Shown: positions 918-5,624, numbered from the stretch's first letter. The stretch: DNA of 5,910 nucleotides from a virus (IMGVR_UViG_2802429232_000005), one strand, 5' to 3'. Translations and numbers: made by a program. The notes: generated from the letters alone by a model not told the origin.

Positions 918-957
918 TGCGATAATAACACCATTAAGAAAACATCTTGTTTAAGGA
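918..957 (+). promoter_or_regulatory. Conserved leader module A: extended -10 (TGcGATAAT), AACA-tct-TGTT palindrome, SD AAGGA
   Basis: TGCGATAAT 918-926; palindrome 941-951; AAGGA 953-957, 7 nt before ATG 965. The module recurs upstream of other genes in the array. Confidence 0.5.
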
Positions 958-964
958 TTGCTTT

Positions 965-1294
965 ATGTTTGCAAATATCGACATCAACCAAATTAAGAAA
1001 TTGACTCAAAAAGAGTTTGACCAGTTTTATGAGCTGGAAGGTTGGTCTTCCACTCTGATTAATTCAAGATGGGTGCTGGAACTGATGACTCGTGATGACG
1101 CACCTGCTTTGATGATCAGCGACCTGGGTGAAGATGCTGACTTTATGGATATGAGCGAATTTTGTGTGGACACATACAACCGCAGCCAGAAGTACTACTT
1201 CACATGCGATAGCGAAAATGACGTGATTTCTAAGGTCTATCTTCACCTCGTCCAGCATTGGGACGTTCAGGAGTTTCTTGAGGTATTCGCGTAA
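965..1294 (+). CDS. Hypothetical small acidic protein (109 aa)
   Basis: ATG 965 with SD AAGGA at 7-nt spacing. The ORF track's longer form starts at TTG 947 with no SD. Hand count about 21 D/E vs 8 K/R. Stop TAA 1292-1294, followed by hairpin 1304-1322. Confidence 0.6.
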   Translation: MFANIDINQIKKLTQKEFDQFYELEGWSSTLINSRWVLELMTRDDAPALMISDLGEDADFMDMSEFCVDTYNRSQKYYFTCDSENDVISKVYLHLVQHWDVQEFLEVFA

Positions 1295-1303
1295 TCACAA
1301 CCA

Positions 1304-1322
1304 AAGCCAGCATTGCTGGCTT
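1304..1322 (+). other. GC-rich hairpin AAGCCAGCA / TGCTGGCTT downstream of the 109-aa gene (no clear U-tract)
   Basis: Inverted repeat 1304-1312 / 1314-1322; same AAG-palindrome-CTTAA style as the hairpins at 2926 and 3397. Confidence 0.45.
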
Positions 1323-1391
1323 AACTTAATCTGTAGCCGCAGGGAAGAACCTGCATATCGCTCATGCGCCTGATTAATATGCTTTGTAGCC

Positions 1392-1443
1392 GTTTTCTTA
1401 CTGGTATTATTTACGCCATTGAGAAAACAAGTTGTTTACGGAG
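1392..1443 (+). promoter_or_regulatory. Conserved leader module D: extended -10 (TGgTATTAT), AAACAA-g-TTGTTT palindrome, SD GGAG
   Basis: TGGTATTAT 1392-1400; perfect 6-bp-arm palindrome 1425-1437; GGAG 1440-1443, 5 nt before ATG 1449. Confidence 0.45.
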
Positions 1444-1448
1444 TTGTG

Positions 1449-1760
1449 ATGAAAAAATCATTGGTTCTTGGTCTGGACAAAGACCAGAAGAGAAAAGAGA
1501 AGCCTGCACTGGTTGCTCAATTAACTTTGCTGGATATCGTTGCCAATGGGACCTCTATTCGTCTGTTCCGTGAAACAGCGGTGTCTTTCGATAAAAACAC
1601 CTTTACTCGTTATGTAATGAATGTTCGTCGCCAGCGTGGAAAAGGCTGGGTGGCATTTCAAAGAATGTGGCCGGAACATCAGCTCGAACTGGCTTTGATG
1701 GAAGTTAACCGCGTGGCCCAGCAAGAGATTCAGAGAGCATCAGTGATGGCAATAGCCTGA
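1449..1760 (+). CDS. Hypothetical small basic protein (103 aa); possible nucleic-acid-binding regulator
   Basis: ATG 1449 preceded by GGAG. The ORF-track start TTG 1419 lies inside the palindromic leader and is unlikely. Hand count about 18 K/R vs 10 D/E. Stop TGA 1758-1760, followed by a strong terminator. Confidence 0.55.
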   Translation: MKKSLVLGLDKDQKRKEKPALVAQLTLLDIVANGTSIRLFRETAVSFDKNTFTRYVMNVRRQRGKGWVAFQRMWPEHQLELALMEVNRVAQQEIQRASVMAIA

Positions 1761-1794
1761 TAATGTGCAAGTGGTAATTAGTCGACCGTACGAC

Positions 1795-1822
1795 AGCCCC
1801 GCCATCCTTACGGGGCTTTTTT
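1795..1822 (+). terminator. Rho-independent terminator (AGCCCCG / CGGGGCT stem, 9-nt loop, T6)
   Basis: Stem 1795-1801 / 1811-1817, followed by TTTTTT 1817-1822. Confidence 0.75.
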
Positions 1823-1849
1823 GTATTGTAAGTACATACTTACGATCAT
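1821..1849 (+). promoter_or_regulatory. Putative sigma70 promoter (TTGTAT-N17-GATCAT) with operator-like palindrome GTAAGTA-ca-TACTTAC in the spacer
   Basis: -35-like TTGTAT 1821-1826, -10-like GATCAT 1844-1849; 7-bp-arm palindrome 1828-1843 fills the spacer. Confidence 0.4.
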
Positions 1850-1886
1850 GGAATAGAAAAATAACCAATACACTACGGAGAGTGAA

Positions 1887-2282
1887 ATGACCGTTAAACG
1901 CGAAAAACTGACAGTTGATGTTTACTATGCCTCTGAAACCGCCGAAGGTAAGAATGTGGCAAAAATCACCGTTGTTACGTACAACACCGAAACTGGTGCC
2001 GAAGTCCAGGCCAGTACGATCGTGCGTAAAGGTGATGCCTCCGGCGGCGAGTACGCGACTCAATACCAGTCTATTTTCGATGCAACTGACCCGCTGCTGC
2101 TGAAAATCGAGAACTACTTCCGCCAGGTTGATGAAGAGGTGTTTGAAACCATGATGAATATGGTTAACACCGTATTCGCCTCCAGCCTGAATACCAACAC
2201 TACCTGGATTGGTCAGTACGGCCTGCGCATTACCTCTGGCATTCCTGCCGACACCTTAATCCCTGAAAGCGTATTCGCTTAA
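1887..2282 (+). CDS. Hypothetical protein (131 aa), mildly acidic
   Basis: ATG 1887 with SD GGAG 1877-1880 at 6-nt spacing. Stop TAA 2280-2282, followed by a strong hairpin terminator. Confidence 0.7.
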   Translation: MTVKREKLTVDVYYASETAEGKNVAKITVVTYNTETGAEVQASTIVRKGDASGGEYATQYQSIFDATDPLLLKIENYFRQVDEEVFETMMNMVNTVFASSLNTNTTWIGQYGLRITSGIPADTLIPESVFA

Positions 2283-2291
2283 TCCTCTTTA

Positions 2292-2318
2292 AATGGCGCG
2301 TAAACCGCGCCATTTTAT
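2292..2318 (+). terminator. Rho-independent terminator (AATGGCGCG / CGCGCCATT stem, loop TAAAC, T-rich tail)
   Basis: 9-bp perfect stem 2292-2300 / 2306-2314, followed by TTATTA. Confidence 0.7.
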
Positions 2319-2325
2319 TATGCCC

Positions 2326-2392
2326 GATAACAATTTGTTTTCTGCCTTATCTGATTTGTGAAAATGATTTCACTGAAGCAACTTAATAAGGA
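2326..2392 (+). promoter_or_regulatory. Leader module E: GATAAC, AACAA-t-TTGTT palindrome, shared TGCCTTATCT 10-mer, GTGAAA-atga-TTTCAC palindrome, SD AAGGA
   Basis: Palindromes at 2329-2339 and 2358-2373; TGCCTTATCT 2343-2352 is identical to 3042-3051; AAGGA 2388-2392, 7 nt before ATG 2400. Confidence 0.45.
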
Positions 2393-2399
2393 AACCATC

Positions 2400-2774
2400 A
2401 TGGGACTTGATATCTATATCGAGACGCAGCCTAAAAACGATCTGAATAACGAGGTATCCAGAAAGCAGGTTGCTTACTTCCGTAAGTTCAATGCGCTCGT
2501 TGGGTGGATGGAGCGCAACGTAGGTGAAGTCGAAAATTGTGAGCTTTTAGAATTAACGATGAATGACATTTGCCTTCTGAAAGCTCATTTGATGCACATA
2601 AACGAAAGCAATTGCGAAGAGTACTTGCCTACCCGGGAAGGTTTTTTCTTCGGCAGTCAGGAGTACGACGAAGGTTACTGGCATGATGTGGGGGAGTTGA
2701 AAGAGCTTGTGGAAGATCTGATTAAGAACCACGACTTTCACAATAATAGACTGACCTTCTGCGCCTGGTGGTAA
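2400..2774 (+). CDS. Hypothetical small acidic protein (124 aa)
   Basis: ATG 2400 with SD AAGGA. The ORF-track start GTG 2358 lies inside the operator-like palindrome. Hand count about 23 D/E vs 11 K/R. Stop TAA 2772-2774. Confidence 0.6.
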   Translation: MGLDIYIETQPKNDLNNEVSRKQVAYFRKFNALVGWMERNVGEVENCELLELTMNDICLLKAHLMHINESNCEEYLPTREGFFFGSQEYDEGYWHDVGELKELVEDLIKNHDFHNNRLTFCAWW

Positions 2775-2776
2775 AT

Positions 2777-2920
2777 ATGGGCGATTTCAAGAAACGCCTG
2801 AAGGAGAGAGCCGAGATGGTCAGAAAGCGAAACGCCTCTTCTGTCATCAGATACGCAAGGCAGTTTAGTCGCAACAACAAATCAGTTGAGGAAAAGATCC
2901 TTAGCGTAATCGGGCGATAA
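2777..2920 (+). CDS. Hypothetical very basic small protein (47 aa), possibly translationally coupled to the upstream acidic gene
   Basis: ATG 2777 lies 2 nt after the upstream stop, with GGTGG 5 nt upstream. Hand translation MGDFKKRLKERAEMVRKRNASSVIRYARQFSRNNKSVEEKILSVIGR, stop TAA 2918-2920. Not in the ORF track, presumably below its length cut-off. The stop sits 5 nt before hairpin repeat 2926, the same spacing as stop 3391 to hairpin 3397. Confidence 0.4.
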   Translation: MGDFKKRLKERAEMVRKRNASSVIRYARQFSRNNKSVEEKILSVIGR

Positions 2921-2925
2921 TTATT

Positions 2926-2956
2926 AAGGCCACCAGCATTGGTGGTCTTAAATGAC
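2926..2956 (+). repeat. Hairpin repeat copy 1: AAGGCCACCA-gcat-TGGTGGtCTT + AAATGAC
   Basis: 10-bp stem (one G-T wobble) with 4-nt loop; about 90% identical to the copy at 3397-3428. Confidence 0.6.
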
Positions 2957-3041
2957 TTTTAATAACCGAAGGTTAGTTTGAAACCTGGCTATCAACTTCC
3001 AGAACCTTTCTTGTGTATTCAGCCTGTATTAACTTCTTTTA

Positions 3042-3102
3042 TGCCTTATCTACACTGCGATAATTACACCAACAAGAAAACAACATGTTTACGCAGTGAG
3101 GA
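3042..3102 (+). promoter_or_regulatory. Conserved leader module B: TGCCTTATCT, extended -10 TGcGATAAT, AAACA-aca-TGTTT palindrome, SD GAGGA
   Basis: TGCGATAAT 3056-3064; palindrome 3078-3090 (core AACATGTT is perfect); GAGGA 3098-3102, 7 nt before ATG 3110. Confidence 0.5.
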
Positions 3103-3109
3103 TATGCTC

Positions 3110-3391
3110 ATGACTGATTTCACCATTACCCCTAAAGCACAAAATGTATTTCTTGAATCATGGCTGGACTTGCCGGAAACAGAACAGCAAGAAATGGATC
3201 ATGTGGATTATGACGAGCAGGTAAGCACGCGATTCTTCCACTTTGAGGGATGCGTTTACGACATTGTCGACTTCATGCGAGATGACCGCTTCCCTGAATG
3301 GCACGCAAGCTATCCACTAAACGCCTTTGCCATGCTGATGATCCGTGTGGATGATTCAGGGGATACCATCGACATCGGTCTGCTCCACTAA
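3110..3391 (+). CDS. Hypothetical small, strongly acidic protein (93 aa); DNA-mimic-like composition
   Basis: ATG 3110 with SD GAGGA at 7-nt spacing. In-frame ATG 3104 is too close to the SD, and the track's TTG 2978 start would run through the promoter module. Hand count about 20 D/E vs 5 K/R. Stop TAA 3389-3391. Confidence 0.6.
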   Translation: MTDFTITPKAQNVFLESWLDLPETEQQEMDHVDYDEQVSTRFFHFEGCVYDIVDFMRDDRFPEWHASYPLNAFAMLMIRVDDSGDTIDIGLLH

Positions 3392-3396
3392 AGGCT

Positions 3397-3428
3397 AAGG
3401 CCACCAATGCTGGTGGCCTTAAATGACC
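3397..3428 (+). repeat. Hairpin repeat copy 2: AAGGCCACCA-atgc-TGGTGGCCTT + AAATGACC
   Basis: Perfect 10-bp stem with 4-nt loop, 5 nt after the stop codon; direct repeat of 2926-2956. Confidence 0.6.
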
Positions 3429-3520
3429 ATCCTGTTTCCCTCAGGCTAATAACACCAACCTCTTACCTCCAGGCAACCGACAAACCCACCTGTTCCCGTC
3501 CGGCTACCGCAACTTTCCAC

Positions 3521-3588
3521 TTTGACGCCTTATTCGTACAACGATAATTAATACCAACAAGAAAACAATTTGTTATTTACGATAAGGA
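3521..3588 (+). promoter_or_regulatory. Conserved leader module C: sigma70-like promoter TTTGAC-N16-GATAAT, AACAA-t-TTGTT palindrome, SD AAGGA
   Basis: TTTGAC 3521-3526, GATAAT 3543-3548; palindrome 3564-3574; AAGGA 3584-3588, 7 nt before ATG 3596. Confidence 0.55.
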
Positions 3589-4080: not shown

Positions 4081-4109
4081 GAGAAGAGGGCCAGAAACGG
4101 CCCTTTCTC
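4081..4109 (+). terminator. Stable hairpin (GAGAAGAGGGCC / GGCCCTTTCTC, loop AGAAAC) after the 160-aa gene; weak U-tract
   Basis: About 11-bp stem with a 1-nt bulge; the loop carries the CAGAAACGGC repeat motif; the T-rich tail lies partly inside the stem. Confidence 0.4.
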
Positions 4110-4123
4110 TATAGCCACCAGCT

Positions 4124-4206
4124 GCCGCAGGGAAATTTTCAGAAACGGCAAGGAACGCATTCATGAGCCGACGGGAAACGGCCAGGATTTTTTCGGGAAA
4201 CGGCTG
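4124..4206. repeat. Second cluster of GGGAAACGGC-type direct repeats (4-5 degenerate units)
   Basis: cagggaaa (4129), cagaaacggc (4140), aggaacgc (4151), cgggaaacggcc (4172), cgggaaacggctg (4194). GCCGCAGGGAA at 4124-4134 also occurs at 1336-1346. Confidence 0.55.
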
Positions 4207-4334
4207 CATTCGCCTTTGTGTAGAAAAAAACATCGGGAAGCTGGTGGAATCCAACCAGCGGTTGTCGGACAGGTGAGCGGGGAAAATTATGATGACTTTC
4301 GTCGCCTGAGACATCCAGATTTCTTTCGTAGCAT

Positions 4335-4666: not shown

Positions 4667-4689
4667 AAAAAAGCGCCCATAGTGGGCGC
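4667..4689 (-). terminator. Rho-independent terminator on the minus strand (GCGCCCA / TGGGCGC stem, loop TAG, T6 on the minus strand)
   Basis: Stem 4673-4679 / 4683-4689 preceded on + by AAAAAA 4667-4672; lies just downstream of the 76-aa gene stop. Confidence 0.7.
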
Positions 4690-4695
4690 TCGATT

Positions 4696-4926
4696 TTATT
4701 TATGTAAACTGATTTCAAATCCCATTTCTACAAACGCTTTTAACATTAAAAATATATCAGCGTCATTCACGTCTGCTTTTTTTCGCTCCTGGTCGCTCAA
4801 TAAGTCAATTTTGCGCGTCGTTTCATCTATAAGCTCGACTGCGCGCCCAGCGTAACCAGCGATCCCAGCGATGCGATTAACAAAATATTCATTGCGCACG
4901 TTAACGCCAGCGATAATCATAAACAT
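4696..4926 (-). CDS. Hypothetical small protein (76 aa)
   Basis: ATG (complement of 4924-4926) with SD AAGGAG (complement of 4934-4939) at 7-nt spacing. Flanked by near-identical terminator hairpins; AT-rich codon usage like the adjacent 216-aa gene. Confidence 0.6.
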   Translation of the reverse strand: MFMIIAGVNVRNEYFVNRIAGIAGYAGRAVELIDETTRKIDLLSDQERKKADVNDADIFLMLKAFVEMGFEISLHK

Positions 4927-4939
4927 GATTAAGCTCCTT

Positions 4940-4960
4940 AAAAGCGCCCATAGTGGGCGC
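4940..4960 (-). terminator. Rho-independent terminator on the minus strand between the 216-aa and 76-aa genes; near-identical to 4667-4689
   Basis: Stem GCGCCCA 4944-4950 / TGGGCGC 4954-4960, loop TAG. On the minus strand it is followed by TTTT and then immediately the AAGGAG SD of the 76-aa gene. Confidence 0.65.
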
Positions 4961-4973
4961 CAGATTCCATTAA

Positions 4974-5624
4974 TTACGCTTTGAAAGCATCAGCCAGATA
5001 GTTATAGAAATCATTTTTAATAAAGCGATATTGCTGCGTACCAGCTTTTGCGCTTCCCATTCCTTTGACTTTCTCAACAAGTCCAAGACGTTCGCAAAGA
5101 TTGATCAACTGGTTGGCTTGAGTATAGCCAGCGTCCAATTTAATTTCGCACGCTTTTTTAGCTTCATTCATTAAATCGAAAACAGCGCCATTAGTGAACG
5201 TGTCGATCTCGTCGTTAATCATATCGATTAAAGCGAATACACGAGATCCTGACATATCAGCGATGGAGTAAACGCATTTACCAGATTTAATTGATTTAAC
5301 CAGATAAACCAGTTTTTCCAGTGAATAACTATTAGTCATTGCATCACGAAAAAATACTTCTGGCGCTTGTTTACTTGCTTTAATCGCATAGTAGAAAACA
5401 GAGCATAATTTTTCATCTTCTACAGCGTTTACAACGTTGTTGATGAAGTAAGCAAGTTTAGTGGTCGCAGCTTGCATATTTGCTTTGTCTGCTTTAGTGT
5501 GCGTACCATTTTTATAATGTTCGTTATATGTTTGAGTTGCCAGATCTGCTTTTTCGCGCAGCTCGTCGGATACAATGGATGCAGCTTCAATGATGGATTT
5601 TTTAGAAATGATAATGTTAGCCAT
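4974..5624 (-). CDS. Hypothetical protein (216 aa), Lys/Ala-rich, AT-rich codon usage; family not recognised
   Basis: ATG (complement of 5622-5624) with SD AAGGA (complement of 5633-5637) at 8-nt spacing; long uninterrupted ORF; terminator directly downstream. Confidence 0.7.
   Translation of the reverse strand: MANIIISKKSIIEAASIVSDELREKADLATQTYNEHYKNGTHTKADKANMQAATTKLAYFINNVVNAVEDEKLCSVFYYAIKASKQAPEVFFRDAMTNSYSLEKLVYLVKSIKSGKCVYSIADMSGSRVFALIDMINDEIDTFTNGAVFDLMNEAKKACEIKLDAGYTQANQLINLCERLGLVEKVKGMGSAKAGTQQYRFIKNDFYNYLADAFKA

Follow-up and report, generated by a model that had tools for sequence, protein, structure and literature searches.

Regulons built on dispersed operators are established for P1 (C1), RK2 (KorA/KorB), and pSM19035 (omega). 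Omega of pSM19035, ParG of TP228, and KorB of RK2 are partition proteins that double as global repressors. In this study, a palindromic box that recurs in front of unrelated genes was analysed in a stretch of viral DNA of 5,910 nucleotides (IMGVR_UViG_2802429232_000005), called the window below. Over 99% of its length, the window shares 97% identity with Escherichia phage Cyrano (OV696614, which is plasmid pLF82), and it is matched by 951 PLSDB plasmids and by the SSU5 group of phage-plasmids. Its counterpart in Cyrano is CYRAN_104-113, a row of small plus-strand genes of unknown function followed by two leftward genes. Clinical Enterobacterales commonly carry SSU5-like phage-plasmids, a group with pHCM2, pMT1, pLF82, and hundreds of plasmids from Klebsiella, E. 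coli, and Enterobacter. A first-pass annotation of the window had interpreted the box as a shared operator for one repressor or as a shared mRNA hairpin that occludes the Shine-Dalgarno (SD) sequence. The shared operator is the best reading of our results, and the hairpin and the two candidate binding proteins then proposed were not supported. The boxes are probably a dispersed DNA operator of one repressor over about 15-20 promoters, whose binder is a candidate only. The gene set under the box is most likely a previously undescribed regulon, and a literature search turned up neither this motif nor an account of lysogeny control for SSU5-like elements.

The box and its place in the promoter

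All five boxes noticed earlier were found in place by a scan of the window for AACA-N3-TGTT. Each is an exact match: AACATCTTGTT at 941-951, AACAAGTTGTT at 1426-1436, AACAATTTGTT at 2329-2339, AACAACATGTT at 3079-3089, and again AACAATTTGTT at 3564-3574. The expected number of exact sites in the window is 0.22, and none of 200 dinucleotide shuffles reached five. The spacer had been given as one to three nucleotides, but it is three in all five boxes. A better form of the motif is AAACAA-n-TTGTTT, extended to AAGAAAACAAnTTGTTTA. This form has dyad symmetry, and it is a 7-1-7 palindrome in several lineages. As a pattern, the box can be written TAAACAAnTTGTTTA.

The longer conserved stretch around the boxes was recovered independently by a repeat search of the window, which returned four to five copies of the module. 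The part from the -35 to the -10 forms a four-copy repeat family (898, 2337, 3036, and 3520), and so does the part from the -10 to the box (926, 1411, 3064, and 3549). The same search paired two 76-nt modules, 885-960 and 3023-3098, at 71% identity. The downstream proteins are indeed unrelated to each other and belong to five different PHROG families. Their start codons at 965, 1449, 2400, 3110, and 3596 are backed by full-length PHROG alignments. The Cyrano annotation starts CYRAN_105, CYRAN_108, and CYRAN_110 at upstream TTG/GTG codons (947, 2358, and 2978 of the window), so that these genes engulf the boxes. The PHROG profiles fit the shorter open reading frames (ORFs) with starts at 965, 2400, and 3110 from end to end. 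Therefore, the boxes lie in leaders and not within genes, as some of the Cyrano annotations imply.

The palindrome served as anchor for an alignment of sites from five lineages, namely Cyrano, SSU5, Salmonella AnCo3, Klebsiella pCAV-type, and Klebsiella LR890700. One promoter cassette appeared in all five lineages, a T-rich stretch with GCCTT followed by TGn-GATAAT (or GAAAAT, GACAAT, or TATTAT). The cassette reads as a putative sigma-70 promoter with an extended -10 and a weak -35. The palindrome is found in two registers of this cassette. The downstream boxes (AAGAAAACAAnTTGTTTA) start 9-10 nt 3' of the -10. Those of the window, at 941, 1426, 3079, and 3564, are each placed 9-10 nt after GATAAT or TATTAT. 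The upstream boxes (tAAACAAnTTGTTTtCTGCC) end exactly 20 nt 5' of the -10 in 15 of 15 clear cases from the five lineages, and nothing else in the cassette is as rigid as their register. The box at 2329 belongs to this different class, being exactly 20 nt 5' of the -10 (GAAAAT, 2360-2365) of the promoter of CYRAN_108 (c108), where the downstream box is degenerate (GAAGCAACTTAATAA, about 2375-2392). If transcription starts 6-8 nt after the -10, the centre of the downstream box would be at about +13 and that of the upstream box at about -38, over the -35 region. Both registers would thereby fall within the footprint of RNA polymerase. Double sites occur at Cyrano c101, SSU5_104, SSU5_115, and one pCAV promoter, and they are 51 bp apart, which is roughly five helical turns. 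Most promoters of LR890700 carry upstream boxes only. Within the modules, the palindrome is the best conserved part by information content. The spacing between box and SD varies from 0 to 24 nt, whereas the distance between box and -10 is constant.

Distribution and expression of the box-preceded genes

The motif search was extended over the full replicon and its relatives, and the box proved to be strongly over-represented and biased to promoters. Fifteen exact AACA-N3-TGTT sites are present in the Cyrano genome against about 2.9 expected, almost all of them intergenic and 5' of genes. SSU5 has 19 exact sites against about 1.8 expected. In an unbiased count of all 5+5 palindromes, AACAA-N1-TTGTT was the top over-represented palindrome in Cyrano (12 versus 0 in shuffles). 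A position weight matrix (PWM) made from the sites gave 22 places in Cyrano with at least 16 bits, and 17 of the 22 are intergenic in a genome that is 87% coding. The box-preceded Cyrano genes are terS, parA, the replicative helicase gene, nrdB, a cobT-like gene, a TciA-like gene, and about ten small accessory genes. For terS, parA, and nrdB, the box is at the equivalent place in SSU5. The box was also found in Salmonella AnCo3, Klebsiella pCAV-type, and Klebsiella LR890700 elements. Among the IMG/VR matches listed, all contig stretches with at least two extended boxes are Cyrano relatives, and 101 unrelated stretches hold single matches at chance level. Upstream of terS (L002, 53-125), two boxes 25 nt apart precede a hairpin rich in G+C with a run of T (AGAGCGCATGGACGCGCTCT GTGTGTTTT), and this arrangement is conserved in SSU5, pMT1, and AnCo3. 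The hairpin with its T-run resembles a terminator that separates the late operon from its promoter, and it hints at antitermination control.

The Pectobacterium plasmid Drgb1 (88 kb) has no such box at its promoters, and its two exact matches do not precede genes. On the other hand, Drgb1 retains the -10 and the AAGAAAA start region. Therefore, the palindrome is separable from promoter function. This bears on an explanation without any trans-acting factor, in which a duplicated promoter cassette was homogenised by recombination of one-gene cassettes, with the palindrome as an element of the promoter or the boundary. In agreement with it, each small gene has its own module copy and its own terminator hairpin, near-identical terminators recur, and the modules persist while the gene content of the array varies between lineages. 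However, the same palindrome occupies two distinct promoter positions, and it also stands before core genes outside the array (terS, parA, helicase, and nrdB). Homogenisation would not account for a palindrome conserved better than the rest of the module, nor for the promoter frame of Drgb1, which lacks it. We consider an origin by homogenisation very improbable.

The expression of the box-preceded genes was taken from the RNA-seq of Misson et al. (PMC9928086, S1 table), where the values are normalised counts of lysogens grown in LB and the Cyrano genome median is 9.8. The counts are 5.7 for both c108 and c58, 6.3 for c93, 6.7 for c110, 7.0 for c85, 7.1 for both c87 and terS, 7.5 for c101, 12.2 for c106, 12.8 for c105, 12.9 for nrdB, 21 for the helicase gene, and 25.5 for c111. 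The exception among the box-preceded genes is parA with 50. Both box classes are associated with silent promoters in lysogens. Inside macrophages, several box-preceded genes are up 4-16-fold in the same table. Repression is the coherent reading because a site at about +13 is hard to reconcile with activation. The 47-aa ORF CYRAN_109 (2777-2920) has 58 counts in the lysogen versus 5.7 for the adjacent upstream CYRAN_108, which suggests its own promoter or a stable small RNA.

The genome-wide positional bias, the conservation across lineages, the fixed register to the -10, and the silence in lysogens all bear out the earlier proposal that regulatory DNA is conserved before unrelated genes. In the mechanism that we propose, the operator would be a palindrome of 13-15 bp, T-AAACAA-n-TTGTTT-A, within a reiterated sigma-70 promoter cassette. 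It would be placed at about +13, covering the start site and early transcribed region, at about -38 in the -35 region, or at both. One dimeric or tetrameric DNA-binding protein encoded by the phage-plasmid may occupy the boxes, and its binding would shut about 15-20 promoters while the element lives as a plasmid prophage. The shut promoters would be those of the accessory one-gene cassettes together with terS, helicase, nrdB, and parA. We infer the transcription start sites, the repression, and the identity of the binder.

Binding at the DNA or RNA level and the candidate binders

The mRNA hairpin occluding the SD was not borne out by RNA folding. The best fold of the box RNA is an A-U-rich hairpin of 5 bp with -0.7 kcal/mol, and the value is 0 for one box. 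The leaders fold no better than shuffles (z-scores of -0.2 to +1.1), and they show no consistent pairing between box and SD. A comparison of the whole window with Rfam gave no match at E up to 1. Occlusion by an intrinsic hairpin has one leader on its side, 936-987, where AUCUU from the box and AAGGA from the SD are paired in the minimum-energy fold. However, the half-sites are conserved in sequence and not through compensatory change, and with the poor stability we regard such occlusion as extremely improbable. The upstream boxes, including that at 2329, are outside the regulated transcript because they are located 3' of the terminator of the preceding gene and 5' of the -35. Therefore, recognition of double-stranded DNA is favoured by the weak RNA folding, the missing Rfam match, the untranscribed upstream boxes, and the register kept to the -10 rather than to the SD.

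A different explanation at the RNA level is offered by CYRAN_114, a gene just right of the window (L001, 25858-26379, minus strand). It belongs to the FljA family (PF03614, Flag1_repress, E=1e-80), adjoins the gene array, and is a core gene in 835 plasmids, including pHCM2 and pMT1. The predicted structure of its protein has two tandem Sm/Hfq-like domains. Salmonella FljA reportedly blocks translation and destabilises fliC mRNA, an account ascribed to Yamamoto and Kutsukake in 2006. The action of FljA on fliC mRNA is likewise cited in a passage of PMC2652032. By analogy, CYRAN_114 would bind the downstream boxes at mRNA 5' ends, block translation, and destabilise the transcripts. The gene is expressed in lysogens (18 in LB and about 130-270 in other conditions), and the box centres are 18-45 nt 5' of the start codons. 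A comparison with 74 flagellin loci showed that the 5' untranslated region (UTR) of Salmonella fliC contains the 8-mer CAAGTTGT, identical to the box core. However, the box-PWM score of the fliC UTR is -2.8 and falls within the null distribution (95th percentile -1.2), so the likeness is not significant. The upstream-type boxes, with their conserved register, are not transcribed with the gene that they precede and are unexplained by an FljA-like protein. The fixed distance of the box to the -10 instead of the SD, the negligible RNA structure of the box, and the drift of the FljA-like protein, which is down to 36% and 26% identity where the box itself has not changed, also speak against it. Overall, an RNA operator for CYRAN_114 is unlikely. 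A mixed arrangement, in which the downstream boxes are RNA operators of the tandem-Sm-fold FljA-like protein and the upstream boxes have a separate role at the DNA level, is quite unlikely. If it were true, a translational repressor of the flagellin type would have been co-opted for the global, post-transcriptional silencing of about 15-20 mRNAs of the phage-plasmid.

For the dispersed DNA operator, a binding protein was sought among the products of the element. The first-pass annotation had named the basic 103-aa or 47-aa proteins as candidate cognate binders, and neither was supported. The 103-aa protein (CYRAN_106) occurs in 746 plasmids, but it is not expressed in the lysogen. Its predicted structure is a four-stranded sheet with a helix, and the best matches are NTF2-like. 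The 47-aa protein (CYRAN_109) is expressed but absent from the loci of SSU5, AnCo3, pCAV, and LR890700, all of which bear boxes. CYRAN_123, an 88-aa winged-helix protein that is 74-78% conserved and encoded just 5' of the terS boxes, has background counts in lysogens, and the box-less Drgb1 retains its recognition helix without change. CYRAN_113 (216 aa, encoded in the window) has no family or PDB match and is silent in the lysogen. SSU5 lacks both the CYRAN_45 repressor and the S24 peptidase CYRAN_98.

The leading candidate is CYRAN_29, a possible but doubtful binder of 119 aa encoded directly after ParA. Its own operon carries a box at about +13, and the parA promoter has the box at this position in Cyrano, SSU5, and pCAV. 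CYRAN_29 reads as a putative ParG/omega-like ribbon-helix-helix centromere-binding protein, in which a strand-helix-helix motif comes after a basic tail (IKSRTMSLEDEYFELL...FTRSDVIRAAI). Weak ribbon-helix-helix matches were obtained with NCBIfam aCcr1 (E=2e-4) and, in the Drgb1 ortholog, with Pfam RHH_1 (E=0.019). The gene has 89 normalised counts in the lysogen. Of 797 plasmids, 736 encode the protein with an identity of 90% or more. Overall identity is 54% in the pCAV ortholog, but the parts predicted to contact DNA are conserved there, with the predicted strand (IKSRTMS-EDE), the N-arm (PVRPQGRPTRGK), and helix B (FTRSDVIRAAI). Should this partition protein be the binder, a single protein would link the maintenance of the plasmid to the silencing of the phage.

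The palindrome could also be bound by an Enterobacteriaceae host transcription factor and not by a phage-plasmid protein. Two observations speak for a host factor: the box does not vary between lineages with only 30-60% identity in their proteins, and it is missing from the sole Pectobacterium element examined. However, the hosts range from Escherichia to Yersinia. To our knowledge, there is no E. coli regulator with the box consensus, which is counted against a host factor and is a lead only. A host protein as the binder is judged quite unlikely.

Several points weigh against the dispersed repressor operator. The operator and its binding by any protein are putative, and the binder could be a host factor. 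The -10 elements were read from the sequence, and the putative start sites were deduced from them. A simple sigma-70 promoter scan does not call the modules, which is explained by their poor -35. Silence in the lysogen would also be expected if an activator were missing, most of the genome being silent. For CYRAN_29, the ribbon-helix-helix assignment comes from sub-threshold matches and a reading of the sequence, and PDB sequence searches with the protein gave no match. Its ortholog in the box-less Drgb1 has a nearly unchanged strand (IKSRTVSMEDE), and only the N-arm differs. The covariation argument for CYRAN_29 is weakened because the predicted strand is nearly the same without the box.

Individual modules, other features, and known systems

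All modules of the window are on the plus strand. The module of the 109-aa gene (CYRAN_105, ATG 965) covers 898-957 and is supported by the motif, the repeats, the cross-lineage register, and the PHROG start. It consists of a GCCT region, the extended -10 TGC-GATAAT (918-926), the downstream box AAGAAAACATCTTGTTTA (936-953, palindrome 941-951), and the SD AAGGA (953-957). The module of the 103-aa gene (CYRAN_106, ATG 1449) at 1385-1444 is based on the motif, the repeats, and the cross-lineage register. Its extended -10 TGG-TATTAT (1402-1410) is followed by the downstream box GAGAAAACAAGTTGTTTA (1421-1438) with the SD GGAG immediately 3', and SSU5 and AnCo3 have orthologous modules with an intact box. 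The module of the 124-aa gene (CYRAN_108, ATG 2400) at 2325-2392 was recognised by its upstream-type box and the cross-lineage register. The palindrome at 2329-2339, which reads GAAAACAAATTGTTATC on the minus strand, is followed by 20 nt and then by the extended -10 TGT-GAAAAT (2357-2365). An inverted repeat, TGTGAAAATGATTTCACT (GTGAAA-N4-TTTCAC, 2353-2372), overlaps this -10, and the other modules are without a dyad there.

The module of the 93-aa gene (CYRAN_110, ATG 3110) at 3036-3102 is supported by the motif, the repeats, and the PHROG start. It has the extended -10 TGC-GATAAT (3056-3064), the downstream box AAGAAAACAACATGTTTA (3074-3091), and the SD GAGGA (3098-3102). The orthologous promoters in SSU5 and AnCo3 have both upstream and downstream boxes, 51 bp apart. 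The module of the 160-aa gene (CYRAN_111, ATG 3596) at 3520-3588 is supported by the motif, the repeats, and orthologous boxes in SSU5, AnCo3, and pCAV. TTTGAC (3521-3526) is followed by the -10 GATAAT (3543-3548), the downstream box AAGAAAACAATTTGTTAT (3559-3576), and the SD AAGGA (3584-3588). A degenerate sixth copy at 313-350 (GATAAA...AAGAAAACAcAACATGTATA) was found through the repeat families and has one extra base within the box. Two pairs of terminator hairpins flank neighbouring genes, 2925-2956 with 3396-3427 (84% identity) and 4669-4703 with 4940-4974 (86% identity). These near-identical pairs fit a cassette-style duplication or recombination.

The gene of a 131-aa protein (ATG 1887) has no AACA box. 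Its leader has a second perfect palindrome, GTAAGTA-CA-TACTTAC (1828-1843). AAGTA-N2-TACTT occurs five times in Cyrano, always intergenic: before the tail genes c12 and c21, after c39, before thyX, and before c107. The copies are equally placed in SSU5, and these palindromes look like a second regulon. Iteron-like GGGAAACGGCTG repeats with a period of about 22 nt flank the array, about six at 467-600 on its left and three to four at 4094-4210 on its right, and the motif is otherwise rare in Cyrano and SSU5. The tract 61-260 is A+C-rich (74% A+C) and T-poor, down to 2 T per 60 nt, with no convincing ORF. A/C-rich stretches are found at the equivalent place in the pCAV and Drgb1 loci. In Drgb1, palindromes of the type TATGTA-NN-TACATA are seen by eye before several genes, and their enrichment was not confirmed in the unbiased count. 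Drgb1 also has an hfq gene just 5' of the helicase gene and an FljA-like gene that has diverged very far (26% identity, hhalign probability 96.6%).

The finding is the definition of a regulon for a clinically common plasmid family and not a new principle. The motif offers a testable handle on the silencing of phage genes, with a defined operator, about 15-20 promoters, and a short list of candidate regulators. Among known systems, FljA and fliC resemble this locus in that a true FljA-family gene lies beside the array and the downstream boxes are at about the distance from the start codon that CAAGTTG has in fliC (24-25 nt). However, the similarity to the fliC leader is not significant, and the upstream boxes are outside the transcript. 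The T4-type promoter-early stem-loop cassettes are alike as one-gene units with a conserved copy of promoter and stem-loop in a variable region. Here, in contrast, a discrete palindrome is superimposed, and it is present also at core genes far from the array.

P1 with its C1 repressor is similar as a phage-plasmid in which many scattered operators control separate operons in plasmid lysogeny. The P1 operators are asymmetric and 17 bp long, whereas the boxes described here are palindromic, and no C1 homolog was noticed in the Cyrano annotation. With omega, ParG, and KorB, the locus would share a small plasmid protein acting on short repeats or palindromes at several promoters, including those of its own partition operon. 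The likeness to KorB extends to the position, since its class I operators are centred near -39 and the upstream boxes at about -38, and to the site, a 6-1-6 or 7-1-7 palindrome akin to the 13-bp OB site. KorB differs as a helix-turn-helix ParB protein and not a ribbon-helix-helix one. Omega and ParG differ in their heptad arrays or tetramers, where single palindromes with putative binding are found here. In contrast to all three systems, the regulon proposed here takes in phage lytic genes such as terS and about a dozen accessory cassettes.

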